Source: a virus
Virus record (IMG/VR): IMGVR_UViG_3300045988_166195
Span: 57,023 to 121,022 of that record
Direction: 5' to 3' (one strand)
Length of the DNA stretch: 64,000 bases
Shown piece after piece: positions 1,053 to 44,782 of the stretch. Each line of letters begins with the position of its first letter. Position 1 is the first letter of the stretch. The notes under the pieces were generated by a model that saw only the letters and a list, made by a program, of their open reading frames with translations, searched no databases and was not told where the DNA came from. A program made the translations under genes and the position numbers.

Positions 1053-3392
1053 GTGTCGATACCGATGAGCTTGAAGCAGAGCATTGTTGTTGTCAACGAG
1101 TTCAGTGTGCCAACCCCAGGCTCGGGCAAGCATGGTGGTTCTCGTGGTGGCACACCCGGTGCTTACGTGATGCGCTATATGGCTCGTAAAGGCGCAACTG
1201 AGCCTGTGACGCCTATTCGTCGACGCAACACCGAGGATTTCATCCTGCGTTACATGGCACGAGAGAGCGCCACAGAAAAAGCCGTGTCGAGGCATCAGCT
1301 CAAAGACAACGTGCTGCATGTGTCCGGTCAAGGCGGCGTTGCATTCGGTTATGGTCAGCCGTCGTTGTCTGATGAAGGCGTGCGCCGTGCCAGTGCTGAC
1401 ATTCAGCGTTTGTTCGACAAGGGGCACACGGTGATGAAAACCGTGCTGTCTTTCAGCCCTGAGTATCTTCAGGAGACGGGCGTCGTCCCCAAGGGCTTCG
1501 TCGCACAGAACAAGGGCGATTACCGAGGTCATATCGACCAGATGCGTCTGCGTATGGCAATCATGCATGGTTTGGAGCGTATGGGGCATCGTTTTGATGA
1601 CCTGCGCTACGTGGGCGTTATTCAGGTTGATACGTTGCATGTTCACTGCCACCTTGCCATGGTTGATGCTGGGCTCGGTCGACGTGTGCGTACAGAGAAG
1701 GGCATGCAACAGAAGGGTAAGCTCACCAGCACGGATATATCGCTCTTGCGACGCGGTGTTGACTCGTGGCTTGATGAGAACCAGCATGTGGCACACATGT
1801 CCAGTGCCGTGGGCTATGAGCGCATGAACGTTGCTGCGTTCGTGAAGCGTTGGGCTCATGAGAAGGTGCTCGATGAGTCACTACCCCAGTTGTTGTTGGC
1901 GTGTCTGCCTGCTGACAAGACGCTGTGGCGTTACGGGTCTCATCGACCGGAGATGCGACGTGCGAACAGTGTTGCGACAGAGCTCGTCACTGAGTTGCTC
2001 GATCGCCTTGGTTCCCCCATGGGATCAGCCATGATCGCTGTGGAGACATATGCGAACCGTCGTGCTCATCGCGAAGGTCTGAGCGATCAGGAGAAACGAG
2101 CGTTGATTCGTCGTGGCCATGAGACGATTATGGAGCGCAGCGTCAATGGTCTGTACCAAGTGTTGCAATCTCTTCCACCTGAGGCTCTTTCCGTGCGTAC
2201 GCCGATGCTCACTGTGATGAGCCAGGATGTGGAGACGCTCATGGCAACGCAATCTCAGCGCATGAAGACCCAGGCTCAGGGTATGAGCGTTGATGATGAT
2301 CTAGTGGGATTCTCACTGCGCCTTCGATCGTATGGAGCTCGTCTACGGGAACATGATACACAGCGTGAGTATTGGCGTATGCGTGCTGCTGACTGGGAAG
2401 CCGGTCTTCAGGCAGGCGCAGTGTCCCCACAGTCCGAGGTGATGCACAAGCTGTATCTGGAGGAAGAGGAATACCACGCTCGTTGCGTCAGTAAGTACCG
2501 ATCGTTGCTCGGGCCACTAGCGGTAGGTGTTGACGGGCAGCGTCAGGATGACGACTCGTGGAAAGACGTGTTGGAGTCGGTGGATAAGCGACGCGAAGCA
2601 GTCGTTGGTCTCGAAGCTCTGCTGGCAGATCGCTCGATTCCGAAGATGAAGGATGCTGATGAAGCTGAAAAGCTTGGTGTTGCTGCTCACGGCGTGAGCG
2701 GTGGACGCTTGCTGGTAGCTGGTGGGAAAGCTGGACGGACCACTTTGAAGCAACGCTTGGAGCGTGCTCGCGCATCGCTGGCTTCCCGAACAGCCGATCT
2801 TGTGTCGATGCTGTCCGGGAAAGGACTTGTATTGCAAGCGATACAAGACGATGCGCGCGAGGATGATCAAGGTAAGCAAAGCGATGCTGTCACCGTGGTT
2901 CCAGGGGAGCGATGGGCGTTGTCTCAGACGAAGGGTATGGATCTGCACGACGTGCGTTCCGATACTGTTGTCGACATGGCGCTTGGTCGCCATGTTGCCG
3001 ATCGGTTCGTTACCTGGGCGCGCAGAAGGCGACAGCTTGTTGATGACGCTCAGGCGTATCTGCATGAGTCTGGTCAGGAAGACATTGTCGAGATGGTTCT
3101 TCCCCTCGATGATGTACGGCGTATGAATCGTGTTGCTGATGATCTGGAACGCCAGATGTCAGCGAAGAAGACCGGGGATCTCATTCTCACGAGTGCTCTT
3201 AGTGATGTGGTGCCAGTAGCGAAACGTATTCGCCGTAGCGCAACAGTGACGTTTGATGAGGGTCTTGCCGGTATTGTTCGTGAGAACACATGGCGCGAGA
3301 CTGAGCGTTTGGTGCCTCAACTGGAACAGGTGTTGGAAGAGAGCGACACGCAGTCTTCTGATGCCTCGATGGATTCCATGGAATTGGGATGA
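1053..3392 (+). CDS. MOBP-family-like conjugative relaxase (HUH nuclease) with long C-terminal extension
   Basis: Duplicated N-terminal motif VMRYMARKGATEPV / ILRYMARESATEKA resembles relaxase motif I (catalytic Tyr, RP4 TraI 'YITDE'). IQVDTLHVHCHLAMVD matches the His-triad motif III (HxDTDxLHxHxxxN/V) of MOBP/MOBQ relaxases. Alternative GTG/ATG start at 1053/1065. Confidence 0.55.
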   Translation: MSIPMSLKQSIVVVNEFSVPTPGSGKHGGSRGGTPGAYVMRYMARKGATEPVTPIRRRNTEDFILRYMARESATEKAVSRHQLKDNVLHVSGQGGVAFGYGQPSLSDEGVRRASADIQRLFDKGHTVMKTVLSFSPEYLQETGVVPKGFVAQNKGDYRGHIDQMRLRMAIMHGLERMGHRFDDLRYVGVIQVDTLHVHCHLAMVDAGLGRRVRTEKGMQQKGKLTSTDISLLRRGVDSWLDENQHVAHMSSAVGYERMNVAAFVKRWAHEKVLDESLPQLLLACLPADKTLWRYGSHRPEMRRANSVATELVTELLDRLGSPMGSAMIAVETYANRRAHREGLSDQEKRALIRRGHETIMERSVNGLYQVLQSLPPEALSVRTPMLTVMSQDVETLMATQSQRMKTQAQGMSVDDDLVGFSLRLRSYGARLREHDTQREYWRMRAADWEAGLQAGAVSPQSEVMHKLYLEEEEYHARCVSKYRSLLGPLAVGVDGQRQDDDSWKDVLESVDKRREAVVGLEALLADRSIPKMKDADEAEKLGVAAHGVSGGRLLVAGGKAGRTTLKQRLERARASLASRTADLVSMLSGKGLVLQAIQDDAREDDQGKQSDAVTVVPGERWALSQTKGMDLHDVRSDTVVDMALGRHVADRFVTWARRRRQLVDDAQAYLHESGQEDIVEMVLPLDDVRRMNRVADDLERQMSAKKTGDLILTSALSDVVPVAKRIRRSATVTFDEGLAGIVRENTWRETERLVPQLEQVLEESDTQSSDASMDSMELG

Positions 3393-3435: not shown

Positions 3436-3528
3436 AGCGCTACACGGGACAAGCCCGTGTATGTGAGAGGGCTGATTAACCCTCGACCGACATCCTGCGG
3501 GATGAGATAAGAAAGGAGGGTGGTCATT

Positions 3529-4092
3529 ATGGCTACTCTACGTGGTAAGGGTTCGATGAAGTCGGTGGAACTGGTCGTTGTGGAGTATCCCAACGCTCAT
3601 TCCAAGGATGGCAAGCGTGCCTTCCTCGACGTGATGGTTCGACCTGTTGAGGGTGCTGCCCCTCAGCGAGTTCCTCACCTGGTTTCGACCAAGAAGGAAC
3701 TCGACGGTAAGACCGTCTACGATCATCAGGCTGGCTACAGCGCTTCTCAGCGCGATGCGTTCGTTGCAGCTGCGGGCGATAACATCGTCCAGATGCCGGA
3801 GCGCAACGGTCGACCTGGTCCGACTGTTTACGCCATTCAGGCGGATGTCATGTCCGCTTCTGGCAAGCAGACCGGCTTGGTCATCAACTCTAAGACGGTG
3901 AAGCCGTCCGAGTTGGAGCCGATCGACGAGAACATTCTCGATACGATCTACGCCGCTTCCAAGGCTGCTGCTGAGGCCGACAAGGCCCGCAAGGCTGCTG
4001 AGAAGGAGGCGCAGAACGAGGCTGCCGCCGAGGCCCAGGTTTCCGAGCCTGAGGTCGAAGAGGTTGCCGAGATCGACGAGCCTGAGTTCTGA
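3529..4092 (+). CDS. Hypothetical protein with Ala/Glu/Lys-rich C-terminal region ending ...EVAEIDEPEF (SSB / T7 gp2.5-like acidic tail)
   Basis: Strong RBS gaaaggagggtggtcattATG. The acidic tail ending in Phe is shared with neighbouring genes. No catalytic motif recognised. Confidence 0.55.
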   Translation: MATLRGKGSMKSVELVVVEYPNAHSKDGKRAFLDVMVRPVEGAAPQRVPHLVSTKKELDGKTVYDHQAGYSASQRDAFVAAAGDNIVQMPERNGRPGPTVYAIQADVMSASGKQTGLVINSKTVKPSELEPIDENILDTIYAASKAAAEADKARKAAEKEAQNEAAAEAQVSEPEVEEVAEIDEPEF

Positions 4093-4237: not shown

Positions 4238-7200
4238 TTGTTTGATGATGAGCGTTTGAACGATAAGTACCCGATGCTGCGAGACTTTGCGGCTAAGCTT
4301 GCGCCGCCTGCTCGTGACATTGTGGGGCGAGAGAGCGAGAAGATCTCGCTCATGAGCTCCCTGGCTCGTCCTGAGATGTGTAACGTGATCTTGCTGGCCC
4401 CGCCTGGCACCGGTAAAGCTCACCCGAATGATGAGTTGATCCCTGTTGCCGATGAGCGTGGATATGTCCGTGTTGGTTTGCTCAAGGTGGGCGATCGTGT
4501 CTTTGATGAGCACGGTGAGCCTGTGACCGTGACGGGTGTGTTTCCTCAGGGGATCAAGCGTGAGTACGTCGTGGTGACGAACCATGGCGACCGTGTGCGC
4601 TGCAACGATGAGCACCTGTGGACGGTGCGATCGGTTGGTGATGCAGAAGGTGTGCAGCAAACGATGTCACTGCGTGAGATCATGGACGCGGGACTTATTG
4701 GTTCCGATGGCGCACCCATCTGGCAGCTTCCTGCTTCTGGTGCGCTTGTGCGACAGAGCCGTCTTCTCCCGGTTGACCCTTATGTGTGTGGTGCGCTGCT
4801 GGGCTGGGGCGTTCGCATCGATGAGCGTGGGTACGTGACCATTCCTCATGAGATGCCCGATGAAGTTTTTGTTGCTATCGAGGACCACATGGGGTGGGAG
4901 CGTGTGTATGGCAGTGGTGACAGTGTTGAGCGTTCGACGTTTATCAACCGTGCGACAGGTAAGCGTCTGACACCTGATGAGGTGATGACTCATCCGGTGA
5001 TGACGAGTGTCATCGTTAAGCCGGAGGATCAGCGTCATATTCCGTACACGTACATCACCAGCTCGGTGAAGGATCGAGAGACTGTGCTACGAGCGCTGCG
5101 AGACAGTGAGTCGTACCGTTTGTCCCAAGGGACTGCATGGGTTGTTGATGCTGATATGCATGAGCTAGAGCGTTCTCTCGATGTGACTGGCGATATGATC
5201 GCTGAGGTGATCGACACCGATCGCGAGATTGAGATGACGTGCATCATGGTCGACTCTGAGACACACCTGTATCAGGTGGGTCGAGGCCATGTTGTCACGC
5301 ACAACACGGTGCTCGTGCAGTCCTGTATGCAAGATGATCCAGAGCGTATTTACCTGGAAGTCGACATGGCAAAGATGATCGCTGACTTGTCGAACCCTGA
5401 AGAGATGGCTGCGCGCTTGAAGGCTCTGTTTGATGAGGCTGAGAGTTTTTCTAGGTCCGAAGGTCGAGAGATCGTGCTGTTCATCGACGAGTTCCACCAG
5501 GTGGTGCAGCTGTCTGCTGCTGCCGTGGAAGCGTTGAAGCCGTTGCTTGCTGCTTCTGGATCTCGGGGTATTAAGGTTATCGCTGCGACCACGTATGACG
5601 AGTTCAACGCTCATATCGCATCGAATCTGCCGCTTGTTGAGCGTCTCGCGCGCATTAACATTCCTCAGACGAATCGTGAGGTGACGATCGCCATCCTGAA
5701 GGGTATGGCGAAGAAGTACGGTGTCGATGAGGGGATCTTTGATGATGCTCTGTATGAGCAGATCTTTGAGTACACGAACAGGTACGTTCCTGCCTCTGTG
5801 CAGCCTCGTAAGTCGATCCGTGTGCTCGATGCCATGGTTGGTCGTCATCGGTATCTGGGCGAGCGTATGGACAAGACGCTGTTGGCAACCGTGCTGAAGA
5901 TTGAGTTCGGTGTTGAAGTGGAGATCGATGTCAATGCTGCTGAGATCAAGGCTGAGCTGGATAAGCGAGTGTTTAGTCAGGACTTTGCCACCACGTCGAT
6001 TGCTCGTCGACTCCAGTTGTGCGTCGCTGGTCTGAATGACCAGAGCAAGCCTATGTCATCGCTGTTGTTCACCGGAGCGACAGGTGTGGGCAAAGCCACC
6101 ACAGATTCTACTCGTGTACCAGTCTTTTCTGAGGACGGTTCTGTGGCATGGAAACTTGCTGGTGACCTTGTTGCCGGTGACTACGTGTTTGCTCGCGATG
6201 GCTCTCCGACGAAGGTACTCGGGGTGTTCCCTCAGGGGGAACGCGACGTGTATCGAGTGACAATGGGGGATGGGCGCATTCTTGATGTGTCTGACAATCA
6301 TCTGTGGGCGGTTTACCCAAATCGGCAATCGCGTGAGCAAGGTCCAACAATCTATTCGACCGAAACTCTGATGAACAAGGGTATCGTGTCGAAGTTGAAC
6401 AATGGTCGTCAGGGGATGAAGTATGTTGTTCCAATGAATAAGCCAGTTCAGTGGCCTACGGTTGATCTCCCTGTGGATCCTTACGCACTTGGAGCTTTGA
6501 TTGCCAATGGTTCGCTCACTGAGAAGGCGCTTGCCATCTCTTCGGATGATGAGGAAACGGTTGCTCGCGTTGGTCAAGCTATTGGTGCTGCGTCATGGGA
6601 TCAGAATGGTAACAATTACTCTTGGTACTTCGGTACAGGAGAGGTATGGGGCGATGACATGAAGCGACGGATTCAGCTCGCGGATGTGTTTGTCGGTTCG
6701 CTTTCTGAACTGATTGGTGTGAAGTCGCCTCAGCGATTTATCCCTGAGCAGTATCTACATTCGTCAATCGAGCAGCGATGGGCGTTGGTTCAAGGGTTGT
6801 TCGATTGCGATGGCTCGATTGGTGCGCGTGATGGTGGTCGTTACAACGTTTCGTATGCTACGGCTTCGAAGCGTTTGGCCGAGGATGTTCGCATTCTTCT
6901 GTTCTCCCTTGGGGTGCCGTGTTCCGTTAACCAGCATGTGCGCGAAAGGAACGGTAATACCCAGGTTGAGTATGAGGTTCATGTGAAGGCTCATAACTCG
7001 GATAAGCATCTCTTTTTCCGTCTCGATCGAAAGAAGAGCCTTGCCATCAAGGCTCAATCTGTGGCAAAACAGCGAGAGAAAAAGTTCGATTATGTCGGCA
7101 TTCGTTCTATCGAAAAACTCGATACGAAAGAGAGCATGACGTGTATCTACGTCGACAATGACGAGCACCTGTATCAGGCTGGTGATTTCATCGTCACGCA

Positions 7201-8011
7201 CAACACTGAGATCACTAAGCAGCTCGCAAAGATTCTTTTCGGTGACGATCAGCGTCACCTCATCCGTTTCGACATGTCGGAATGGGGCCGTGACGACAGC
7301 GTGGATCTGTTCCGTGAAGAGCTCTCGCGTCAAGTGTGGGCAACCAGCCATTGCGTGTTGCTCTTTGATGAGATCGAGAAGGCGTCCCCGCTTGTTGTGC
7401 GTTTGCTGCTTCAGGTGCTCGATGACGGTCGACTCTCGGATAAGGACGGGCGACAGGTGTCGTTCCTAAACACCTATATCGTGTTGACGACAAACGCTGG
7501 TTCGGAGATCTACCGCACCATCGGTGAGTACAACGCTGATGATCACGGTAGTGAGGCCAGCATGCGTGAGTATGAGAAGGTCATCGAAGAGTCGATCAAG
7601 AGCACCGATGGTGGTAAGTTCCCACCTGAGCTCCTGGGACGTATTGATGCGATCGTGCCGTTCCAGCCGTTGTCGCGGCCTACGTTGCGCAAGATCATGA
7701 TGAAGAAGTTGAGTGCTCTCAAGGCTGATGTGAAGCGTAAGCACGGTATCGATCTGACGATCGATAAGCGTGTTGTCGACTTTCTGGTGGAAGACGAATC
7801 GCGTAGTGACTCTGATGCTGGTGGTGCACGTGACATGGTGCGTCGCATGCAGCGTTACCTTTCGACGGAAGTCGCAGCGTTCATCAATGAACATCCCGAG
7901 GAACGTGTGATCGCAGCCAAGATCGATGGCACGTTGCGTAGCGAAGATGTGACGATCTTGAAATCTGATGCTCGTGTGGTGGTCTTGCCATACGACAAGC
8001 CACGGGCTTAG
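4238..8011 (+). CDS. ClpA/ClpB/ClpC-family double AAA+ ATPase (unfoldase) interrupted by two inteins
   Basis: D1 motifs: GRESEKISLMSSLARPEMCNVILLAPPGTGK|T (Walker A), LFIDEFH (Walker B), IKVIAATTYDEF, LVERLARINIP. D2 motifs: LLFTGATGVGK|TEITKQLAKILFG, LLFDEIEKASPLVVRLLLQVLDDGRLSDKDGRQVSFLNTYIVLTTNAG. TTG start with GGAGG RBS. The mature extein is predicted at ~670 aa. Confidence 0.85.
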   Translation: MFDDERLNDKYPMLRDFAAKLAPPARDIVGRESEKISLMSSLARPEMCNVILLAPPGTGKAHPNDELIPVADERGYVRVGLLKVGDRVFDEHGEPVTVTGVFPQGIKREYVVVTNHGDRVRCNDEHLWTVRSVGDAEGVQQTMSLREIMDAGLIGSDGAPIWQLPASGALVRQSRLLPVDPYVCGALLGWGVRIDERGYVTIPHEMPDEVFVAIEDHMGWERVYGSGDSVERSTFINRATGKRLTPDEVMTHPVMTSVIVKPEDQRHIPYTYITSSVKDRETVLRALRDSESYRLSQGTAWVVDADMHELERSLDVTGDMIAEVIDTDREIEMTCIMVDSETHLYQVGRGHVVTHNTVLVQSCMQDDPERIYLEVDMAKMIADLSNPEEMAARLKALFDEAESFSRSEGREIVLFIDEFHQVVQLSAAAVEALKPLLAASGSRGIKVIAATTYDEFNAHIASNLPLVERLARINIPQTNREVTIAILKGMAKKYGVDEGIFDDALYEQIFEYTNRYVPASVQPRKSIRVLDAMVGRHRYLGERMDKTLLATVLKIEFGVEVEIDVNAAEIKAELDKRVFSQDFATTSIARRLQLCVAGLNDQSKPMSSLLFTGATGVGKATTDSTRVPVFSEDGSVAWKLAGDLVAGDYVFARDGSPTKVLGVFPQGERDVYRVTMGDGRILDVSDNHLWAVYPNRQSREQGPTIYSTETLMNKGIVSKLNNGRQGMKYVVPMNKPVQWPTVDLPVDPYALGALIANGSLTEKALAISSDDEETVARVGQAIGAASWDQNGNNYSWYFGTGEVWGDDMKRRIQLADVFVGSLSELIGVKSPQRFIPEQYLHSSIEQRWALVQGLFDCDGSIGARDGGRYNVSYATASKRLAEDVRILLFSLGVPCSVNQHVRERNGNTQVEYEVHVKAHNSDKHLFFRLDRKKSLAIKAQSVAKQREKKFDYVGIRSIEKLDTKESMTCIYVDNDEHLYQAGDFIVTHNTEITKQLAKILFGDDQRHLIRFDMSEWGRDDSVDLFREELSRQVWATSHCVLLFDEIEKASPLVVRLLLQVLDDGRLSDKDGRQVSFLNTYIVLTTNAGSEIYRTIGEYNADDHGSEASMREYEKVIEESIKSTDGGKFPPELLGRIDAIVPFQPLSRPTLRKIMMKKLSALKADVKRKHGIDLTIDKRVVDFLVEDESRSDSDAGGARDMVRRMQRYLSTEVAAFINEHPEERVIAAKIDGTLRSEDVTILKSDARVVVLPYDKPRA
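4418..5305 (+). mobile_element. Intein 1 (296 aa) inserted in D1 P-loop between GTGK and T. Ala1, block-B Trp, block-F Cys (MTCIMVD), ...VVTHN|T: class-3 'WCT'-like intein. Possible degenerate LAGLIDADG (VDPYVCGALLGWG)
   Basis: The extein junction restores the canonical Walker A GTGKT. The C-terminal HN is followed by Thr +1. Hint-like N-terminal region DELIPVADERGYVRVGLLKVGDRVFDEHG. Confidence 0.7.
6095..7204 (+). mobile_element. Intein 2 (370 aa) inserted in D2 P-loop between GVGK and TEITK. Ala1, MTCIYVD, ...FIVTHN|T. Contains LAGLIDADG homing-endonuclease motifs (DPYALGALIANGS ... GLFDCDGSIG)
   Basis: Junction restores GATGVGKTEITKQLA (ClpB D2 consensus GPTGVGKTELAKALA). Hint block A: TTDSTRVPVFSEDGSVAWKLAGDLVAGDYVFARDG. 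Confidence 0.7.
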
Positions 8012-8137: not shown

Positions 8138-8167
8138 TACAACCGAATCGATCGAAAGGATTTGTCT

Positions 8168-10444
8168 ATGCTGTTTGGTAAGAAGGACGACACCAAGGTC
8201 GTCGACGAGCAGGTTGCGGTGGCTCCTGCTCTTGACAAGAAGGCTCAGAAGGCTGAGGCTAAGAAGGCCAAGGACTCTCTCGCGCTTGTCATCGATGAGA
8301 CGGAGCCCGGTGCGGCTCTTGATTTGATCCGTAACAATGAGCAGTGGGCGCTCCCCAACGGTGCGAGCGTCATCCTGTCCCTCCCTGTTGATGCGCCCAT
8401 CGAAGAAGGTGGCATCGGGGGTCTGGGCAAGGTCTCGTCTAAGGGCAACGAGGATAAGGGTTCGATTCTTCAGCGCATTGCTGACGATAAGATTCAGGTA
8501 TTTATGACGGAGGATATGCTCCGTCATAACATCCTGGGTATCATTCCGACGGAGCAGTCCCTCAGTGCCGAAGGTATGGGTGAATACACCCTCTTCGACA
8601 AGGCGATCTTCATGCTCACGTCTGTGAGTGTCGGTGCAGATGGTTTTCCCGTTGTGAACCCGGTTCATTACGATGAACTGACGAAGACCATTGATGTTCC
8701 TGTTGGGGATGTCGATACGATCACTCTTGCTCAGGCGCAGGCTATCTCTTCTGGCGCTGTGTCTTTGACGACTCTGATTCCCTCGCTGTGGCGTCGTCTG
8801 GGTGGCGAGGTTGACGCTGATTCGGTCGAGTCTGAGTCTGAGGATCTCGTTGAGGATATTCCTGCGCCGCCGTCGACTTCTGTGAACAACGTGAACGAGA
8901 CTGATGAGTCTTTGGAGAATGTCGATAATCTGCCGGATTTCGACCCTGACGATATTCCAGATGAGCCTCTGGAAGACGATCTTCCGTTCGATGAGGGCTC
9001 GTATGACGACGATGATTCTGACATTGAAGATCCGTTTAAAGATCTCGATGTCGAGTCTGACGTTGAGGCTACGGTTGCGACTGAGACCGAAGATGCAGCG
9101 GGTTCCATCCCTGCACCTGTCGTCGACAACCGCGTCTTCGACCGGGAGGCGGTGCGCAACACGATTGCCCGACGTTTCCTCGATGAGGATCTGGGCTTTG
9201 GTGTCGACATGACCCCGTTTGAGACTCTGTTCGGTCACGAGGCGGACGAGGCCAGCCGTTTCTCGCTGGATCACCTTGACGGTGATAACTGGCTGGACAG
9301 CCAGATTAAGCTGCTGTCGCAGCAGGCCAACGATGCGTTGGCTGATCGTCGTCGTCGTGACATCAATGAGCTGCGTGATCTCTACTTCTCGCTTGTCTCG
9401 AATACCGGCGACGAGATCGCCGCGAAGATGAGCACCGGACCTGGTGCTGACAATGTGTGGGCTCAGACGCTGGCTGAAGCCGATGGCAACGCCGAGAAGT
9501 CTCGTGAGAGCCTCGTGGACATCGTGGGTGCACAGCGTGCTGCCATTATGGCTAAGTATGAGAAGGAACGAGAAGAGCATGCGCAGGCGCGCGCTATTGA
9601 GGCGAAGTCTCTCTACGACGTGCGGCACAAGCCCAGTCTCGATCGAGAACTGGCGGAGATTGAGCCAAATCTCCGGGCGACCATCGACGAGGATCACGCT
9701 CTTCGTCGTCGTCAGATTCTCGATGCGCGTAAGCAGTCTGCTCAGGCGTCGTTCGACGCAGCTCTTACTCGCGTGATGGATCACCTGATCCAGAAGCGCT
9801 CTGAGCAGGTCGCTCGTGAGGCAGAACTCATGGAGCAGTTCCGCGATGAGATGGGCGCGTTCCTTGACGAGAATCGCAAGGAAGACATCGCTCGCGCCGA
9901 AGCGCTGCAAGAGCAGCTGTCTCGACAGAATATTGTCGAGGAAAAGACGGCTGAGTTCGCCGCTCGTGAGAAGGAGCTGCGTGAGCAGATCGTGCGTGAG
10001 CGCGAGGAAGCTCAGAAGCGTTCTCTGGCTGCTCAGGAAGAGACGAACAAGCTCATTGAGCGTATGCGACTGGATCACGAGGCTGCTTTGGCTCAGGCCA
10101 AGGCTGAGATTGAGCGTGCGAATGAGCGCACGAAGGAAGAAGCGGCTCGCGTGAACGTTGTTCGCGACGAGATCTCGCGTCAGTTCGAGAGCCAGGTGTC
10201 CTCTCTCCAGCTCGATAAGCAGCTGCTGATCGATCAGATGGATCGAGAAAGCGTTGTCGCTAAGCGTGCCAACCGTCTGTACATCGCTTTGGCGGTTCTG
10301 GTGGCGCTGGCGTTCCTCGCGCTCGGTGTCATCGCGGGCATTCTGCTGCACAGCACGCTGGGTGATGCGAACGCCGCAGCAGCGGCGATCGCTGATGTTT
10401 CTGCACAGGTGGTGACTAACAGCGCAACGTCGATCGGTGTGTAG
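8168..10444 (+). CDS. Acidic coiled-coil protein with C-terminal transmembrane anchor (function unknown)
   Basis: Long Asp/Glu-rich N-terminal half. Extensive heptad-like R/E/A/L region (aa ~380-700). Single hydrophobic helix LYIALAVLVALAFLALGVIAGILL near C-terminus. ATG 8168 has better RBS spacing than TTG 8162. Confidence 0.55.
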   Translation: MLFGKKDDTKVVDEQVAVAPALDKKAQKAEAKKAKDSLALVIDETEPGAALDLIRNNEQWALPNGASVILSLPVDAPIEEGGIGGLGKVSSKGNEDKGSILQRIADDKIQVFMTEDMLRHNILGIIPTEQSLSAEGMGEYTLFDKAIFMLTSVSVGADGFPVVNPVHYDELTKTIDVPVGDVDTITLAQAQAISSGAVSLTTLIPSLWRRLGGEVDADSVESESEDLVEDIPAPPSTSVNNVNETDESLENVDNLPDFDPDDIPDEPLEDDLPFDEGSYDDDDSDIEDPFKDLDVESDVEATVATETEDAAGSIPAPVVDNRVFDREAVRNTIARRFLDEDLGFGVDMTPFETLFGHEADEASRFSLDHLDGDNWLDSQIKLLSQQANDALADRRRRDINELRDLYFSLVSNTGDEIAAKMSTGPGADNVWAQTLAEADGNAEKSRESLVDIVGAQRAAIMAKYEKEREEHAQARAIEAKSLYDVRHKPSLDRELAEIEPNLRATIDEDHALRRRQILDARKQSAQASFDAALTRVMDHLIQKRSEQVAREAELMEQFRDEMGAFLDENRKEDIARAEALQEQLSRQNIVEEKTAEFAAREKELREQIVREREEAQKRSLAAQEETNKLIERMRLDHEAALAQAKAEIERANERTKEEAARVNVVRDEISRQFESQVSSLQLDKQLLIDQMDRESVVAKRANRLYIALAVLVALAFLALGVIAGILLHSTLGDANAAAAAIADVSAQVVTNSATSIGV

Positions 10445-10618
10445 CATCGATTACGTGATCGCATAGAACAAGAGGTGCGGTGAGGGTTATCCTTGCCGCA
10501 CCTCTTTTCTGTGTCTCTGCGCTTCTGTTTCTGATATGATTAGGTTGGTGAATCAACCAAATCGAAAAGATGCAAGAAAGACGTAAGAGACAGAAGAGAA
10601 AGGTGAAAGGTGGTGCAT

Positions 10619-13600
10619 ATGGCTTTCGGACGAAAGAAATCCGGTGGAGCAGCGCCTCGTGAACACGGTAGCCAAGCGTGGAACCAGTTGGGTAAGCAAG
10701 ACGAGCTTGACTCGCTGGCCTATCAGGATGTGCACGGCGACCAGCAACTAGAACGTAGCGACATCGAGGCGAAGATCTCTCCGGTGTCGCGTGAGGTCGC
10801 ATCGGCTGTTGCCGGTGTGCTTATCTTTATCCTCGTGTGGATGCTGTTCTCGTTCGGCACGATGGGTGTGGCCATGGGCCGTGACGCTCTGTGGCGTTCG
10901 TCTGTTCCGAGCTACGCGGTGCAGAACAAGGCTCTGACGAAGGAGCTGGGCAAGCCTGTGTGGAGCGAAGGGTGTTTCTCTCCAGCTCTCGAAACAGGTG
11001 AGATCGATACGTCCGATGAGACGTGCTATGAAGCTGCTGAGGATGTTCCTGAGCCACAGTGGCACGTGGATGCCGTTGCAGCAGAACAGGCTGAGCGCGA
11101 TGTAGAACTAGCGGATCGCCCAAGCGGTGCGATGGGATGGATGCTGTCATTCGATTGGCTGAAGTTCATTGTGTCGTCGATCGCTGGTCTTGTCGTGTGG
11201 GGCTTGCTGCGTATGCGACTGATGCGCAACTTGAAGGCTCAGAACTTGATGCGGGATACGACCGACATCAACCAATACAAAAACGACCAGCACGTGGCAC
11301 TTCCTGAAGAAGTGCGTGAGCGTTTCGATGTGGTGCCTGACGTGGGCGCGCACACAGGTGTAAGTGCGACGACGCTCATTTCCCACTCGATGGTCTCGAA
11401 CAAGGGCATCAAGAAGGTGGCATTTGCGCAGCGAGCAACTGAGGACATTCTCGACGAGGATGGCGATGTGGCTCTGTTCGAGGGAGAAGCTCTCACGGAC
11501 GATAACGGCGACGTTGTGACCAAGATGGTGCCGATGTTTGACGAAGAGTTTGGTACAGCTCTGTGGAACGCATCGGGGCTACCAGATAACAAGCAACTGC
11601 GTCGTCGTTTGGATCCTCGAAACGTGCCGTACAACCCAGGGAATGCCAACCGAGACAAGCTCAAGGGTTTCAACACCCTGGCTGATCTGGTGAACGGTGA
11701 GTGGGAACTTCCGATGTATGAGCCGCAGCGTCCTGCTGGCGTCTACTACGTGGATACGGCTCCTGCGAACACCATGATCCTAGCTATGACTCGTGCTGGT
11801 AAGGGTCAGACGTACATTGAGCCGATGCTCGATATTTGGATGCGTCAGAAGCGCCCGGATAACATGGTGATCAACGACCCCAAGGGCGAGCTCTTGGTGA
11901 AGAACTATGTTCGTGCCACCATGCGTGGTTTCCAGGTTGTGCAGTTCAACCTCATCAACGCCATGAAGACTGATATTTACAACCCGCTTGGAATGGCTGC
12001 TGAGGCTGCACGCGAAGGTGATCAAACCAAGTGTGCTCTGTATGTCGAGAACATCGCAGATGTCTTCTTCCCTGTGGATGGCGCGGAAGACCCTGTGTGG
12101 CCGAACGCTGCGAACAACGCGTTCAAGCGTGCGGCATACGGCCTCATCGATTACTACCTCGAAGAAGAACATCAGCTGCGTCAGTACGCGATGCGTCACG
12201 GTATGGATCAGAAGGTTCTGGAACAGAAACTCGATGCCATGTGGGGTAAGGTGACGCTCTACAACTGCTACCAGTTGTTCGTGCAGCTCACGAGTAAGAA
12301 GCGTAAGTCTCCGATGACTCAGGTGAACGAGCGCATTAAGAGTGGCTACTACGATCAGCAGTCGTCCGATCCTGATGAAGTCGACGCTCTGATCGAGCAC
12401 GACAAGATGCAGGCTGAGCGTATTGAGTTCTTGTGGGAAGGTAAGCCGGAATCTGACTTGCTCACCTTGTTCTTCAACGCCACTGAGGCGTTGCCTCAGT
12501 CGACGATGCGTACGTTGATCGCTAATGCGAACAACGCACTGCGTGCAATGGCTGGAGCTGAGAAGATGCTCGCATCTGTGTACGGTATTGCTATCACGGC
12601 AATGTCGTTCTTCACGGATCCGACGATCTCGACGTTGACCTCTGGTACTCCGTCACAGAACACGGATCTTGGCGGTCTGTCGTTCCCTCGTCGCTTCGGT
12701 GTGCGTTTCGCTCAGAACTTCACCAAGCGAGACGGTCTCATCGGTGCTCAGGCGAAGTGGGATGCGTTCGATGATCCCGAGTTGAAGCACAACCTGGGTA
12801 AGGATTTCGAGCACGAAGACACAGTGGTGCGAGAAGGATGGGCTCGTTATTACTTCGACGGTAAGTTCCCACATGACGTTGCCTACTTGCGACTGCGTTT
12901 GTTCAACCCCCAGACGGGTGTGTTGCTCAAAACGTTCTACTTCCAGTTCACGAAGGGTTACCAGCTCTCGTTGAATGGTCGTAAGTTCGTCAAGGATCCG
13001 ATCACGGGTAACAAAATCATCCGTAATGGCGTTCTCGTGGAGATGGTGAAGGGTAAGAACGGGGTTCTTGTTTCTGGTCACCTGAGTTATCCGGCAACAC
13101 GTCTGTTGGATAAGGCGGGGAGCCTCAAGACTGTACGAGAGGATGTCCCTGCGATTATCCTGTCGTCGGTTCGTTATTCGGAGCAGCCGAAGGCTGTGTT
13201 CCTGGTGACGCCACCTCACTTGATGAAGTACGCGAAGCTCGTACTGATTCTTGTGAAGCAGTTGGTGGATCTGAACTTCGATAAGTCGTACATGACGAAG
13301 GCGAACCAGAAGCCGCTCTACAAGACGCGCTTCATGCTCGACGAGCTCGGCAACTTGCAGTCCGAGGGTCACGGTATCTCGGGATTTGAGACCATGCTCT
13401 CCATTGGTCTGGGTCAGGAGCAGCAATTCACGCTGATTCTTCAGACGTTGCAGCAGGCTCGTGACGTTTACGGGGACAGCGTAGACAAGATCATTCAGGG
13501 AAACGTTGCCAATATCGTCTTCTTGAAGTCGACGGATGACACGATGATTGAGACGTTGGCCAAGATGTCCGGTACTCGCCACCGTGCGGTGCGAGACTCT

Positions 13601-14665
13601 AAGACGGTGACTCAGGATACTGAGCGTCTCATCGAAGGTCTGAACGTTGAGGGCAAAGTGTCGTACACGATCAGCGCGAAGGAAGAAAGTGTCATTGGGT
13701 ACAACGATCTGGCATTCTTGCCGGAACGTAACTCGATCATCTTTTCGGCAGGCATCTCGCCTATCTGGAACCGCAATGCGGAGATTCTTCCTATGTCGTG
13801 GCGCTTGTTCAGCAACACGATCAAGCATCCGGGCCGCGAGTACTCACTTCAGACGATTCCGACTCTCTCGTCGGCGCTTGATTTCGATGTGCGTCTTAAC
13901 CAGCCGAACTTCATGAAGATGCTGGATAAGCGCATCGAGCAAGCCGCGAATGCGGCTGAGGCGATGGAGTTGTACCAGGAGGCATACGATCTGGATGATT
14001 ATGGCATCTCGATCCTGGATCCCGATGTGTACTCGGCTGAGGTCATGGATCTCATTGCCTCGATCGAGGAAGAGCGCAGGGGCCACGACATGGAGAACGA
14101 AGAGTACGACATGGACAGTGACGAGGCTCTACGTGCTCAGTTGGGATCTGGCTACGATATGTTCAACGAGGCTGACGAGATTAACGAAGATGTCCGCGAG
14201 GATCTTGCTGCTCGTCAGGAGATGTTGGCCGATCGAGCGAAGATGCGCTACGCGGAAGGTCAGATCAGCCGTGAGCATCTGATGAGTGAGAGTGGACAGG
14301 TGTTGCACCATCTCGATGGTGACATCGTTGCTGCGTATCGTGAAGCGAAGCACGCAATGGTGGATGACGTTCGGTTCTTCCGAACAGACGAGAACGGTTC
14401 GCTGTGCTCGCTGGATGGAAAGGTCTACATCAGCCAGGGTGTGTCGAGCGATGAGCTGCGTACTCTCCAAACCGCATCGTCCGATGAGACGAGCGGTGTG
14501 TATGCGGATGATGAGTCGATCTCTGAGATCGCGGACCTGGGTTCGTGGCGAGTCCATGATGCGTTCTATAGGTTCTTGCACGGCCTGGAGTCGTGGGAGG
14601 ATCTCGGCGGAGGCACTTTCGATCGCGCTATTGCACGAGTGTTCGAACGTCGAGAGAACGAGTGA
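10619..14665 (+). CDS. Type IV secretion coupling protein-like ATPase (VirD4/TraG/TraD family) with ~700-aa C-terminal extension
   Basis: Two N-terminal TM helices. Walker A MTRAGKGQT. DPKGEL motif (MVINDPKGELL). Walker B-like RFMLDELGNL. Q-rich stretch typical of T4CPs. Acidic/aromatic C-terminal 300 aa with no known motif. Confidence 0.65.
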   Translation: MAFGRKKSGGAAPREHGSQAWNQLGKQDELDSLAYQDVHGDQQLERSDIEAKISPVSREVASAVAGVLIFILVWMLFSFGTMGVAMGRDALWRSSVPSYAVQNKALTKELGKPVWSEGCFSPALETGEIDTSDETCYEAAEDVPEPQWHVDAVAAEQAERDVELADRPSGAMGWMLSFDWLKFIVSSIAGLVVWGLLRMRLMRNLKAQNLMRDTTDINQYKNDQHVALPEEVRERFDVVPDVGAHTGVSATTLISHSMVSNKGIKKVAFAQRATEDILDEDGDVALFEGEALTDDNGDVVTKMVPMFDEEFGTALWNASGLPDNKQLRRRLDPRNVPYNPGNANRDKLKGFNTLADLVNGEWELPMYEPQRPAGVYYVDTAPANTMILAMTRAGKGQTYIEPMLDIWMRQKRPDNMVINDPKGELLVKNYVRATMRGFQVVQFNLINAMKTDIYNPLGMAAEAAREGDQTKCALYVENIADVFFPVDGAEDPVWPNAANNAFKRAAYGLIDYYLEEEHQLRQYAMRHGMDQKVLEQKLDAMWGKVTLYNCYQLFVQLTSKKRKSPMTQVNERIKSGYYDQQSSDPDEVDALIEHDKMQAERIEFLWEGKPESDLLTLFFNATEALPQSTMRTLIANANNALRAMAGAEKMLASVYGIAITAMSFFTDPTISTLTSGTPSQNTDLGGLSFPRRFGVRFAQNFTKRDGLIGAQAKWDAFDDPELKHNLGKDFEHEDTVVREGWARYYFDGKFPHDVAYLRLRLFNPQTGVLLKTFYFQFTKGYQLSLNGRKFVKDPITGNKIIRNGVLVEMVKGKNGVLVSGHLSYPATRLLDKAGSLKTVREDVPAIILSSVRYSEQPKAVFLVTPPHLMKYAKLVLILVKQLVDLNFDKSYMTKANQKPLYKTRFMLDELGNLQSEGHGISGFETMLSIGLGQEQQFTLILQTLQQARDVYGDSVDKIIQGNVANIVFLKSTDDTMIETLAKMSGTRHRAVRDSKTVTQDTERLIEGLNVEGKVSYTISAKEESVIGYNDLAFLPERNSIIFSAGISPIWNRNAEILPMSWRLFSNTIKHPGREYSLQTIPTLSSALDFDVRLNQPNFMKMLDKRIEQAANAAEAMELYQEAYDLDDYGISILDPDVYSAEVMDLIASIEEERRGHDMENEEYDMDSDEALRAQLGSGYDMFNEADEINEDVREDLAARQEMLADRAKMRYAEGQISREHLMSESGQVLHHLDGDIVAAYREAKHAMVDDVRFFRTDENGSLCSLDGKVYISQGVSSDELRTLQTASSDETSGVYADDESISEIADLGSWRVHDAFYRFLHGLESWEDLGGGTFDRAIARVFERRENE

Positions 14666-15378: not shown

Positions 15379-15558
15379 GGCGGTTCTCCTGATTCTATTA
15401 GGGGTTGTTTGTATTATTCAGTGTATCATAAATAGTCGGTTATATGTATGCGGGTTCCCTTGTGTTTCCAGTCGAAATGCGGGTTTTTGTCGGGTAGAAT
15501 GGAGGGCGTAATACCCGATCGATCCAGTGGATCGAAACTCCAGGAAGGAGAATGCGTT

Positions 15559-18500
15559 ATGCAAACGCGCAATGCCGGACTCCGGCGTTACATGTACGAG
15601 CATATGATCGCTCGCACAATCAATCGAACCTCGGAGATCACGAAGACTCCGATTCTTGTATCTCAGGGTCGACGCCTGAGGGATCTCATGGAAGAGCGTC
15701 TCAATGAACAGGGTCGTTCTTTCAACGATGGTGATCTACCTGTTACCGATGCGCTGGATGCTATCCAGAGCATCATGGAAGAGCATGTTCCCGGATACAA
15801 GCCTTTGTTCCAGCCTGCCGATACATCGAGTAAGGGCTACAAGGTTCTATATGAAGAGTTCAGGAACATGGTCGGTCTGAATGGCTCTGCTGGCGCGGCT
15901 GGTCCGCGTCTGCCGATTTCTCCGTATGATCCCCGGTGGGGGAGCCGTCGCACTGTGAAGCAGGCTGGGACCTCTATCCTGTACGTGCTCGATGGCGACA
16001 TCGCCGCATACGCAGACGGTAAGCCAAGCAACATCGAGAAAGCGACGACCTCAGAACTTACTCTGTACCGCTTGACTGATGAAGGGAAGGCCAAAGAGGC
16101 AGGCCGCGCTCTCAGCCTTGATGATGTCTCGGGTCTCACCGAGCTCATGGGTCGCATGTCGACGGCTGAGTACAACGAGGTTCGTCAGTGGGTGCTGGAC
16201 GGTGCTCGCAACCCTGAAACGGGGCGCTACAACGCCCGTCAGTTCATGAGCACTGATGCATTGGCTCGTTCCCGAGCTGTGCTGGACATGCTCGCAGAAG
16301 AGGGCATTCCGTACACGATCGAGAAGGATCTTCGCCCTGGTCAGATCCGTGCGCGTTTGACGGGTACGAATATGACGGTGCGCCTGACTGACACCCGAGA
16401 CAAAGAGCAGTGGGTGGGTCGTGTCTACGACAACGGTGCAACTCTGTACTTCTCCACGACGGCTCGTCGAGACAACAAGCAGGTGGCCTACACGCCAACT
16501 GTTGACGAGGTGTGCGACCTCGTGCGTGTTGCGCTGGGTCGACCAGTGGAGCGCAAGGATGGTAAGGGCCTCGTGGGCCGAGTGGGCGAGCGTCAGACCA
16601 GCAAGGGTAAGACGGTTCAAGAGTCGTATCTCTCCACTGGAACACTGACGAGTGCGTACAAGGACATGCCCGGTATGAACGGTGAGCAGATCGTGATTCG
16701 TCGTCAGATGAAGGAGCGTTCTGCGTCTTCGCGGTTCTTTGCCGATACGCCCGAAGGTCGTGAACAGGCATCCGGTTTCATTACCGGTGCTGTGCACAGC
16801 GCTCGTCACAATGTGATTGAGCAGCTCGATGTCGATGGTCTGATCCAGCAGTTCCGCGATCACGAGGATGCTGCCCGTGAGGGTACGTACATCCCTATGC
16901 TGTCTGGTGATCCTGATCTTGCGGCGGTTGGCCGCGCGTACTGGGATGTGCTTCGTGGCGCTGAGACAACTCTGCTGAAGCCTGAGGCTACGCGAGCTGA
17001 GTACGCTGAGGCGACGGGTCTGCTTGACGACATGGATCAAGAGAGCGATCTGTCGGGCGTTCACGACATGCTGGCCGGTTCCGTGGCGTACACGGGTACC
17101 CCGGAAGAACGTGTTCGTGCGCATCTTCGGGATCTTCTCGATACCCAGATCGGTATCGATGAGCCTATCGACTCTGATGACTTCGTGTTCGATCCAGTGC
17201 GCGTTGCTCGTTACATGACGAGTGAACACGGCCAGTGGCGTAACAACGATGATCTCGTGGCTGCTATGCGCAGCGTTGGTATGCCTCAGGAGAAGATCGT
17301 CGGGGAGTCGTTCTATTCCAACACGTTCCGCGATCGACTGATCACCTTCGATGAGTCCACGGCTTTGCCGATGGAGACGGTCGAAGATGAGTTCACTCAG
17401 TCGATGCTTCAGGTTGTGTCTGACACGCTGGAGTCCTGCGCTGTGACGCCTGGTTCTATCCGCGTCGACGCCAACGGCGTTGTGGAGTGGACGGGCTCCA
17501 TCATGCGCTCGCAGACAGGTAAGGAAGAGCCCGTGAGCGGTACGATCGGACAGATCTTTGCTCGCGGTGAGAACGGTGAGATCATCACACGGTTCAATTC
17601 CGGTAACGATCTGATGATCGTGCCTGGTTTTGACGCACGTGTGGTGGCACAGAAGCCTGGAGAGAACAAGTCCCTCGAAGAGCGCACCCGGCTGATCGGT
17701 TACGAGCAGCAGATGAGTGACGCGATTCGATACCGAGTTCAGGCTGATGTGCTCTCAGGTCGTTCTCGTGTGGGTGAACCCGCCTCGTTGAACAGTGTGT
17801 ACCGTCGTCTGTCGGATACGCGCCATCGCGCGGATCACTACGAGCGCGCTCTCGAAGAGGGTATGGATCGGAAGATCCTTGATGCCATTCTTGCTACCGA
17901 AGCGCGTCGTGTGCGTTACCCGAACGCTTTGCGTGATGGGTCGACGATCGACGCTGACTTCCGTGCATCTCGTGCTCGGGAACAGGGTATTGGTGGCGAT
18001 CCGGCCAACGACACGACCATGGATCCGTGGGTGTTGACCGGCGGTCGCAACATGTCGTTGCTCAGCGAAGAAGCCGATGGCTACTTCGATCCGATCATGA
18101 CATCGGGCGGTGTGAACCAGGGCGTGACTCGTTATCTGGTGTCCGGTGCGCAGGTGAATCCTGATGGATCGATCGTACGTTCTGATAAGAACGACCGTGC
18201 ACCGCTGATGTTGACTGAGCAGGCTCAGCTCATGAGCTACGATCCGTTCGATCGTCAGCAGATGACGACTTCTAATCTCATGAACGCATCGTCTGTGACG
18301 AAGCCTGTGGGCACGGCGTTCATGACTGCTGGTGGTTGGACGATGGAGGACTCCATCGTTGTCTCGGCTGACTTTGCCAAGCAGTACCGCGTTCGCGGCA
18401 CTGACGGTCAGATGCGCGATCTCATCGTTGGTGACAAGATCTCCGATATGCACGGCAACAAGGGTGTTATCTCGCTCATTGTTGATCGCAATGCCGATCT

Positions 18501-44685: not shown

Positions 44686-44782
44686 GGTGATCACCTCTTT
44701 CTCGTTGATATGGGGACGCAACGGCCCAGATTTGCTTGAGTGGTTATCCAGGCCGTTGCGTGAATGCGATGGGGCTATGTCA

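Follow-up and report, generated by a model that had tools for sequence, protein, structure and literature searches.

Class-3 inteins are among the rarer inteins. They are defined by a non-nucleophilic residue 1, a Trp/Cys/Thr (WCT) triplet and Ser or Thr at the +1 position (Tori et al, 2010, PMC2807308), and the triplet occupies positions B:12, F:4 and G:5 (Kelley et al, PMC5050341). It is already established that they favour P-loops and that phages carry them (PMC2807308, PMC5050341). Here, we describe a gene in which both Walker-A loops of a two-ring Clp/Hsp100-like AAA+ ATPase are interrupted by inserts having the class-3 signature. The gene is located at nucleotides (nt) 4238–8011 of a 64,000-nt stretch of DNA (positions 57,023 to 121,022 of the IMG/VR virus record IMGVR_UViG_3300045988_166195), and this whole stretch is referred to as the window.

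The closest known systems include the class-3 inteins of DnaB. DnaBi1 of M. smegmatis and DnaB-1 of M. chimaera (6BS8, 6RIX/6RIY) are likewise inserted between the Walker-A Lys and the following Ser/Thr, and their Trp, Cys and Thr-His-Asn (THN) residues align with those of the window inserts. As in the window gene, the +1 residue of the DnaB class-3 inteins doubles as the Mg-coordinating residue of the P-loop (PMC6195587). The DnaB inteins are, however, mini-inteins in a replicative helicase of RecA fold, whereas those of the window contain LAGLIDADG-type domains and have an AAA+ Clp-like host. The Bethlehem DnaB intein, the prototype of class 3 (PMC2807308), shares with the window a non-nucleophilic residue 1, the WCT triplet, Thr at +1, the P-loop location and a mobile element as carrier, a likeness drawn from published features and not from sequence comparison; it differs in its host protein and in that its biochemistry has been worked out. 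M. smegmatis DnaB as a whole resembles the window gene in that a single ATPase carries two inteins that differ in endonuclease status, the P-loop being one of the insertion sites (PMC6195587). However, its DnaBi1 is of class 3 and its DnaBi2 of class 1, and their sites within the one ATPase domain are not equivalent, whereas the window gene has two class-3-type inserts placed at matching Walker-A positions of tandem AAA+ domains.

P-loop inteins similar to those of the window, with GK^A/C...YIVTHN^T junctions (the caret marks the splice junction), a VFPQG motif, the F:4 Cys and a length of 344–354 amino acids (aa), are also found in phage genes of the helicase, TerL, PhoH and DarB-like kinds, for example in the helicase of Eggerthella phage LE2-3, in Staphylococcus phage CF5, in PhoH of Lactococcus phage LW81 and in Bacteroides phage BS-TP3. 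They are 34–38% identical to the window inteins in the splicing domain, and differ in that their hosts are unrelated and carry a single intein each. On the side of the host protein, the “AAA family ATPase” genes of Gram-positive conjugative plasmids have the same two-AAA+ architecture of ~590 aa and are mostly intein-free. The extein identity is 53–59% for actinobacterial plasmids and 30–35% for those of Firmicutes (Staphylococcus, Lactococcus, Ligilactobacillus), and intein-free orthologues with 53–54% identity are present on pGKT2 of Gordonia KTR9 (NC_018580) and on a plasmid of Rhodococcus fascians (NZ_CP140265). Inteins in Clp-like ATPases or in a MobL-type conjugation module were not described in the literature searched, with InBase and the supplementary tables of Novikova et al lying outside its scope. 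Relative to that literature, the new points are the host family, which comprises Clp-like double AAA+ ATPases encoded by plasmids with MobL-type conjugation modules, the occupation of both equivalent Walker-A sites of a tandem AAA+ protein and the range of intein states in the family; the splicing mechanism itself is not new.

Class-3 signature, fold and conservation of the two inserts

The open reading frame (ORF) at 4238–8011 starts with TTG, has a ribosome-binding site (GGAGGA) ~8 nt upstream and is unbroken across 3.8 kb. Its parts, with D1 and D2 for the first and second AAA+ domains, are as follows:

4238–8011, + strand: whole gene, 1257-aa precursor of 140.7 kDa, two-ring Clp/Hsp100-like AAA+ ATPase with two predicted inteins
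4238–4417, + strand: N-extein, aa 1–60, ending in the D1 Walker-A motif LLAPPGTGK (4391–4417)
4418–5305, + strand: predicted intein 1, aa 61–356, 296 aa, 33.2 kDa, PPGTGK^AHPNDE...HVVTHN^TVLV
4619–4621, + strand: Trp128 (B:12) of intein 1, in CNDEHLW with His126 (B:10); residue 1 is Ala61
5240–5242, + strand: Cys335 (F:4) of intein 1, in MTCIMVD
5297–5305, + strand: Thr354-His355-Asn356 of intein 1, followed by Thr357 at +1
5306–6094, + strand: middle extein, aa 357–619, with Thr357 (predicted +1 nucleophile and Walker-A Thr), the D1 lid and the linker
5474–5497, + strand: D1 Walker B, VLFIDEFH, within the middle extein
6062–6094, + strand: D2 Walker A, LLFTGATGVGK, end of the middle extein
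6095–7204, + strand: predicted intein 2, aa 620–989, 370 aa, 41.3 kDa, TGVGK^ATTDST...FIVTHN^TEIT
6305–6307, + strand: Trp690 (B:12) of intein 2, in SDNHLW with His688 (B:10); residue 1 is Ala620
7142–7144, + strand: Cys969 (F:4) of intein 2, in MTCIYVD
7196–7204, + strand: Thr987-His988-Asn989 of intein 2, followed by Thr990 at +1
7205–8011, + strand: C-extein, aa 990–1257, with Thr990 (predicted +1 nucleophile and Walker-A Thr), the ClpB_D2-small domain and the stop codon
7355–7384, + strand: D2 Walker B, VLLFDEIEKA, within the C-extein

Both inserts fall exactly between the Lys and Thr of the Walker-A GK^T. An initial annotation of this DNA, made from the sequence, had proposed two inteins, one per Walker-A loop and at the same GK^T position, each with Ala1, a block-B Trp, a block-F Cys and THN followed by Thr; both junctions were found to be exact, all the motifs it quoted were located, and its assignment to the WCT class agrees with the published definition (PMC2807308). 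Every sequence feature of class 3 is present in both inserts, the HN^T junctions included. Such a combination goes far beyond chance. When both inserts were excised in silico, a product of 591 aa and 66.3 kDa was obtained, smaller than the ~75 kDa that had been expected. In the unspliced protein, both Pfam AAA matches were cut off exactly at the P-loop. After excision, the AAA_2 match was extended from profile positions 16–166 to 1–166 (E 7.5e-36), and the AAA match (PF00004) improved from E 2.5e-07 to 9e-21 and then began at profile position 1 (1–111 of 131). The spliced sequence also matched AAA_lid_9 and ClpB_D2-small (E 8e-7), and the NCBIfam ClpA alignment was continuous over residues 27–547.

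The closest solved structures by sequence (phmmer) were, for both inserts, the gp41-1 intein (6riz) and the class-3 DnaB inteins 6rix, 6riy and 6bs8. The similarity to the DnaB inteins was weak (E 1e-4 to 1e-6), with H-x-W aligned to HQW, M-T-C-I-x-V-D to VRCVEVDN and THN to THN. AlphaFold2 models of the two inserts had a predicted local distance difference test (pLDDT) score of 91.7 and a predicted template modelling (pTM) score of 0.87 for intein 1, and 93.5 and 0.92 for intein 2. The top Foldseek matches of these models in the PDB were the endonuclease-containing inteins PI-SceI, Tli/Pho VMA and PI-PfuI (E 5e-11 to 5e-16), followed by the class-3 DnaB mini-inteins (6bs8/6rix) with TM-scores, normalised to the target, of up to 0.85. 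Thus, both inserts are confidently predicted to consist of a Hint fold plus a LAGLIDADG-type domain; this structure prediction was the check suggested in the initial annotation, and the Hint fold was found in both. In Pfam and NCBIfam, intein 2 matched LAGLIDADG_3 (E 1e-11) and several intein-containing NCBIfam models, and no family of either collection matched intein 1.

Profile hidden Markov models (HMMs) of the N- and C-terminal splicing regions were searched against the six-frame translation of the window. They matched the two inserts only, with domain E values of 1e-31/2e-32 and 2e-18/9e-24, which are partly circular as both query inteins were among the family inteins used for training. 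No third intein of the class-3 P-loop type was found in the window, all the remaining HMM matches having E>0.4. We conclude that the two inserts are very probably inteins with a class-3 signature.

A homologue search of 5.8 billion proteins returned 1206 matches, of which the best 120 were analysed and aligned with the query (121 sequences). These 120 homologues were 73–92% identical, had ~1250 aa each, contained both inserts and came from contigs of mostly 100–125 kb. Invariant in the 121 sequences were the Gly and Lys of the P-loop (G57 and K60 at D1) and Ala1 of intein 1. The Trp (B:12), the block-F Cys, Thr-His-Asn and the +1 Thr were invariant for both inteins. By contrast with Ala1 of intein 1, residue 1 of intein 2 was variable (A in 55, C in 27, S in 23, L in 10, G in 4 and Q in 2). 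Such a free residue 1 together with an invariant internal Cys is as predicted for the class-3 mechanism, in which residue 1 is not the nucleophile. Within the extein, the mean identity to the query was ~91% for both long segments and 84% for the short N-terminal one; it was 83–93% in the splicing blocks and 64–68% in the middle domains.

The ratio of nonsynonymous to synonymous substitution rates (dN/dS) was calculated by the Nei-Gojobori method for the query against two of the homologues (L001 and L002). It was 0.045–0.06 in the extein, 0.07–0.085 in the splicing blocks and 0.16–0.21 in the middle domain of intein 1, and 0.23–0.32 in intein 2, with splicing-domain values of 0.07–0.24 overall. 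The strong purifying selection argues that the host gene is functional despite the interruption of both its P-loops. In RadA of P. horikoshii, an intein in the P-loop disrupts the ATPase function (cited in PMC6195587). Because 300–370 residues within a Walker-A loop would bar nucleotide binding and the extein is under strong purifying selection, both inteins are expected to be spliced out in vivo.

Endonuclease domains, allele exchange and distribution of the inteins

The middle domains of the two inteins were searched for the LAGLIDADG motifs, and the following elements were mapped:

4787–5113, + strand: middle domain of intein 1, degenerate LAGLIDADG-type (motif remnants, fold, dN/dS 0.16–0.21)
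4787–4810, + strand: motif-1 remnant of intein 1, CGALLGWG, with an invariant Trp in place of the catalytic Asp
5087–5113, + strand: motif-2 remnant of intein 1, LRALRDSES, with a variable catalytic position (E/A/I/N/V)
6485–6814, + strand: predicted LAGLIDADG homing-endonuclease domain of intein 2 (Pfam LAGLIDADG_3, E 1e-11, and fold)
6485–6511, + strand: motif 1 of intein 2, ALGALIANG, with Asn757 at the catalytic position
6788–6814, + strand: motif 2 of intein 2, VQGLFDCDG, with Asp858, invariant

The catalytic positions (position 8 of each motif) were placed by what we take to be the alignment to D218/D326 of PI-SceI. Active LAGLIDADG enzymes are expected to have an acid in each of the two motifs; neither intein has both, and the fold is present in both. 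With Trp and a variable residue at its two catalytic positions, intein 1 is degenerate, as had been suspected from the outset, and its endonuclease is judged from these motifs to be dead. The view that intein 2 keeps its LAGLIDADG motifs was right about their presence and incomplete about their integrity, as the catalytic position of motif 1 is Asn in 110 of the 121 sequences and Asp in only 4. The endonuclease of intein 2 is, therefore, probably impaired or at most a nickase.

The alleles of intein 2 were found to be exchanged between related elements. The nt identity between the query and L001 was 0.75–1.00 over the exteins and intein 1, fell to 0.38–0.76 within aa 618–970 and was 0.81 at the C-terminal splice end; dN in the query comparison was 0.024 for the extein against 0.34–0.57 for intein 2. 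Among the 121 sequences, intein 2 forms five types at 75% identity, which are shuffled relative to the extein. The correlation of pairwise identities was 0.27 between the extein and intein 2, against 0.64 between the extein and intein 1. In 506 pairs, the exteins were >95% identical and intein 2 <60%, and in 174 pairs the exteins were <88% identical and intein 2 >90%. Thus, intein-2 alleles pass between related elements through gene-conversion tracts bounded by the intein.

The distribution of inteins in the wider family was followed by a HMMER scan of 1.84 billion cluster representatives using the spliced sequence as query, and the best 150 relatives (32–83% identity) were examined by pairwise mapping and intein-HMM scans. 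No intein was found in 67 of these, one in 51 and two in 32, and nearly all of the inteins lay at either GK^T position. Five of the proteins with one intein mapped uncleanly in the pairwise comparison, and their site was taken from the HMM coordinates; among complete proteins with mappable junctions, 15 were occupied solely at site 1 and 24 solely at site 2. At least one intein was present in 54/59 representatives having an extein identity of 50% or more, in 20/31 at 45–49% and in 9/60 below 45%. P0121, a relative with 83% identity, has intein 1 and lacks intein 2. The 108 inteins extracted from the family representatives were 177–462 aa long and contained the F:4 Cys in all 108, the Trp in 102 and THN in 106, with chiefly Ala, Leu or Gly, plus many other residues, at the first position. 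Both LAGLIDADG acids were retained in 10/50 site-1 and 10/60 site-2 inteins, nearly all of them of at least 345 aa. Seven sequences have a DnaB-like sub-lineage (LLPL...PTHN) at site 1 (bootstrap support 100%), which is not present in the window gene. One gene with a DnaB-like intein at site 1 is the 1431-aa two-intein gene of the Streptomyces plasmid NZ_CP109461, which RefSeq labels just “AAA family ATPase”. The plasmid ATPase family is, thus, an intein hot spot covering the full spectrum of the homing cycle.

Splicing route and origin of the inteins

In the proposed route, the lack of an N-terminal nucleophile would leave the block-F Cys (Cys335 in intein 1 and Cys969 in intein 2) to attack the Lys-Ala bond at the N-terminal junction, giving a branched thioester. 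The N-extein would then be handed to the +1 Thr (Thr357 and Thr990), cyclisation of the terminal Asn (Asn356 and Asn989) would free the intein, and an O-to-N shift would rebuild an intact GKT Walker-A motif. Two such splicing events would be required to turn the 140.7-kDa precursor into a 66.3-kDa ATPase with two competent ATP sites. We infer these chemical steps from the homologous inteins of Bethlehem DnaB and M. smegmatis DnaB (DnaBi1), and take it with good confidence that both inteins splice in vivo in this manner.

That the inserts are instead non-splicing insertion domains, or that the gene is a decaying pseudogene, with an ATPase that is inactive or works with the inserts retained, might be argued from the lack of a Pfam or NCBIfam match for intein 1 and from the impairment of both endonuclease domains. 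However, the frame is intact over 3.8 kb, the catalytic splicing residues are invariant in 121 sequences and dN/dS is ~0.05 in the extein and 0.07–0.24 in the splicing domains. A domain of 296–370 aa between the Walker-A Lys and Thr would also be incompatible with nucleotide binding, and a contiguous GKT is found exactly at these points in intein-free and single-intein orthologues. This explanation is extremely improbable, and it was dropped on the basis of dN/dS and the invariant catalytic residues. A different chemistry was also considered, either the class-2 route as in KlbA, in which the +1 residue attacks the N-terminal junction, or the class-1 route in the Cys1 and Ser1 alleles. Class-2 inteins can have Ala1 as well, relatives of intein 2 start with Cys (27) or Ser (23), and three WCT inteins with Ser1 or Cys1 were left without class assignment by Tori et al (PMC2807308). 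Yet, class 2 by definition has no WCT triplet and, in the mechanism described for it, uses Cys at +1 for the attack (PMC2807308), whereas WCT is invariant here and +1 is Thr, and class 2 was dropped for these reasons; Ala1 in both window inteins would make the class-1 route impossible for them. An alternative route is thus very unlikely.

A further explanation accepts splicing and holds that the inteins are kept as conditional, redox- or metal-sensitive switches, both ATPase rings being off until splicing, so that a conjugation function is gated. In its favour, both inteins are fixed in >120 homologue clusters, and their splicing domains have stayed under purifying selection even as the endonucleases decayed. 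Oxidation reversibly inhibits the class-3 P-loop intein DnaBi1 through its catalytic Cys, and DnaBi1 has a Cys48-Cys118 pair (PMC6195587). Cys62 of intein 1 (block B:6, nt 4601–4603) stands four residues before the block-B His, and a Cys at this position is kept in 41/50 site-1 inteins and in 4/6 P-loop inteins of the outgroup; by analogy with the pair in DnaBi1, Cys62 is a possible disulfide partner of the block-F Cys. However, purifying selection on splicing residues is expected of any intein in a needed gene, and relatives with no or one intein are common, P0121 without intein 2 among them, which makes the inteins dispensable. We regard the switch as improbable. If true, the inteins would be thiol-based switches, each AAA+ ring remaining dead until the block-F Cys of its intein is free to react, and redox or metal status would gate plasmid transfer functions post-translationally in oral Actinomyces-like hosts.

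The question of origin was approached through pairwise identities over a splicing-domain alignment of 131 columns, because the neighbour-joining tree was poorly supported at depth; its deep branches lacked support, and only two groups reached 100% bootstrap, the clade of query intein 1 and the DnaB-like subgroup at site 1. Homing between the two AAA+ domains had been suggested in the initial annotation, so that one intein would have arisen from the other by ectopic homing between the D1 and D2 P-loops of the same gene. The two share the class-3 type, the P-loop location and a LAGLIDADG-type middle domain, and most of their length can be aligned (27% identity, E 2e-15); the site-2 inteins P0144_s2, P0123_s2 and P0141_s2 have site-1 inteins among their nearest neighbours, indicating possible rare site switching in the wider family. 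In the splicing domain, however, the query inteins are 35% identical to each other, and intein 1 is 34–45% and intein 2 35–44% identical to P-loop inteins of unrelated proteins, the outgroup being an Eggerthella phage helicase, Staphylococcus phage CF5, a TerL-annotated gene of a Bacteroides phage, PhoH of a Lactococcus phage, and genes of Waltera and Ezakiella. The group mean identities were 0.341 between site 1 and site 2, 0.353 between site 1 and the outgroup, and 0.351 between site 2 and the outgroup, and a split of both query inteins from all outgroups appeared in 82/200 bootstrap replicates. Furthermore, the reconstituted target sites agree at 19/42 nt and each query intein nests with the inteins of its own site. 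Homing from one P-loop to the other is accordingly not supported and improbable; one intein does not appear to have seeded the other, at least not recently.

The simplest reading is that two similar P-loops were colonised independently from a common pool. The two inteins would be independent colonists drawn from a large phage and plasmid pool of P-loop class-3 inteins, both now fixed in the window lineage. Class-3 inteins had been described in the initial annotation as mostly actinobacterial or mycobacteriophage; this did not hold for the relatives found here, which are widespread in phages of many phyla. Among the Firmicutes genes, L003 (Ezakiella metagenome-assembled genome [MAG]) and L004 (Waltera intestinalis contig) have one class-3-type P-loop intein each, with GK^ALPNS...FIVTHN^T and GK^AQPID...YIVTHN^T junctions, respectively, and their splicing domains show 38–45% identity with those of the query inteins. 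The related inteins of these two genes indicate that the intein pool crosses phyla.

Some points weigh against this account of class-3 splicing, homing and independent colonisation. The class-3 mechanism is a prediction from the signature and homology. The intein-2 lineage, with Cys1 or Ser1 in some close homologues, might possibly use a class-1-like route too. The allele swapping may be ordinary homologous recombination through the conserved flanks and not endonuclease-driven homing, which is conceivable because the intein-2 endonuclease is without one catalytic acid. The poorly supported deep branches of the intein tree would be compatible with an ancient transfer between the D1 and D2 loops.

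Host protein, genetic setting and significance

The best solved relatives of the spliced sequence were ClpB, ClpC and ClpA (E 6e-59 to 3e-47, ClpB 1qvr giving 6e-59), and the Clp/Hsp100-like architecture was evident from a D2-small domain and a pair of AAA+ modules, both having Walker A and B motifs. The scores of 256–260 bits were far below the NCBIfam equivalog cut-offs for ClpA (993) and ClpB (1232). In comparison with T. thermophilus ClpB, the D1 pore loop AKYRGE is replaced by DLSNPE (KYR by SNP), the stretch with GAPPGYVGY of the D2 pore loop lies opposite a gap of 10 residues, the extein having no aromatic-Gly motif there, and the N domain and M-domain insert are missing, the alignment beginning at ClpB residue 171. 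As the extein has neither the N and M domains nor either of the pore-loop Tyr motifs, the name “unfoldase” given to this protein earlier is not justified for the spliced product, and the intein-bearing ATPase may not thread substrates in the manner of ClpA/ClpB. A second Clp-like double AAA+ gene of 624 aa (33389–35263, - strand) contains no inteins; compared with the spliced ATPase, its product shows just 23% identity and, unlike that ATPase, retains a pore loop of the GYVG type (IIGSPSGYVGSE).

The ATPase gene is surrounded by the following genes of a conjugation module and a large ORF:

1053–3392: MobL relaxase (E 1e-62)
3520–4092: conserved ORF of 190 aa, between MobL and the ATPase
8162–10444: conserved ORF of 760 aa, between the ATPase and the coupling protein
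10610–14665: type IV coupling protein, 1351 aa, with the Pfam match confined to aa 862–1053
15448–21009, + strand: ORF of 1853 aa, with short Pfam matches only, RNA_pol_Rpb2_6 (aa 987–1014) and RNA_pol_Rpb1_2 (aa 1365–1420)

The order MobL, small ORF, ATPase, ORF and coupling protein is shared with a 119-kb human-metagenome contig (L010) and the Streptomyces plasmid NZ_CP109461. The 1853-aa ORF is also syntenic in both, is labelled “hypothetical”, and its product is a candidate single-chain beta/beta-prime-like two-barrel RNA polymerase. The presence of the conjugation module indicates that the 64 kb are part of a plasmid or an integrative and conjugative element. Ten neighbouring proteins gave no match in PHROGs, which speaks against phage origin notwithstanding the public “Herelleviridae” label. 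The public name of the homologue P0056 reads “MAG TPA: DNA packaging protein [Herellevi...”, a label suspected to be a mis-annotation, its inteins being similar to those of phage helicases and terminases. No match was obtained when the gene was searched by Megablast in the PLSDB plasmid and GenBank phage records, among which the element therefore has no close relative, and no record with the exact sequence of the window protein was found, P0001 being used in its place. The sole relatives in genome collections were two contigs in an uncultured Actinomyces MAG, and the assignment to an Actinomyces host is tentative. The GC content of the window is 47–58%, presumably lower than that of an Actinomyces chromosome, and the GC skew is positive in all 2-kb windows over the 64 kb.

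P-loop and replication proteins are common targets of inteins. Of the remaining P-loop proteins encoded in the window (coupling protein, second ClpB-like protein, MgsA, SNF2 and D5 helicase), none had an intein by the HMM search. The genes scanned included the following, each without an intein by HMM scan:

43354–44721, - strand: MgsA-like AAA+ protein
44783–46354, - strand: SNF2-family helicase
52429–54162, - strand: D5-type primase/helicase
56966–58864, - strand: RecJ-like protein

With both equivalent Walker-A sites occupied, the window gene offers one polypeptide with two class-3 inteins in their native context for comparative and conditional-splicing studies. Genes of this kind carry the labels “AAA family ATPase” or “ClpA” alone, their inteins unremarked, which is a point for annotation. 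The family has every state of the two sites (empty, site 1, site 2 and both), inteins with intact endonucleases, decayed ones and mini-inteins, and allele exchange with break points at the intein. It therefore provides a data set for the homing cycle and for the jumps of P-loop inteins between non-orthologous sites.

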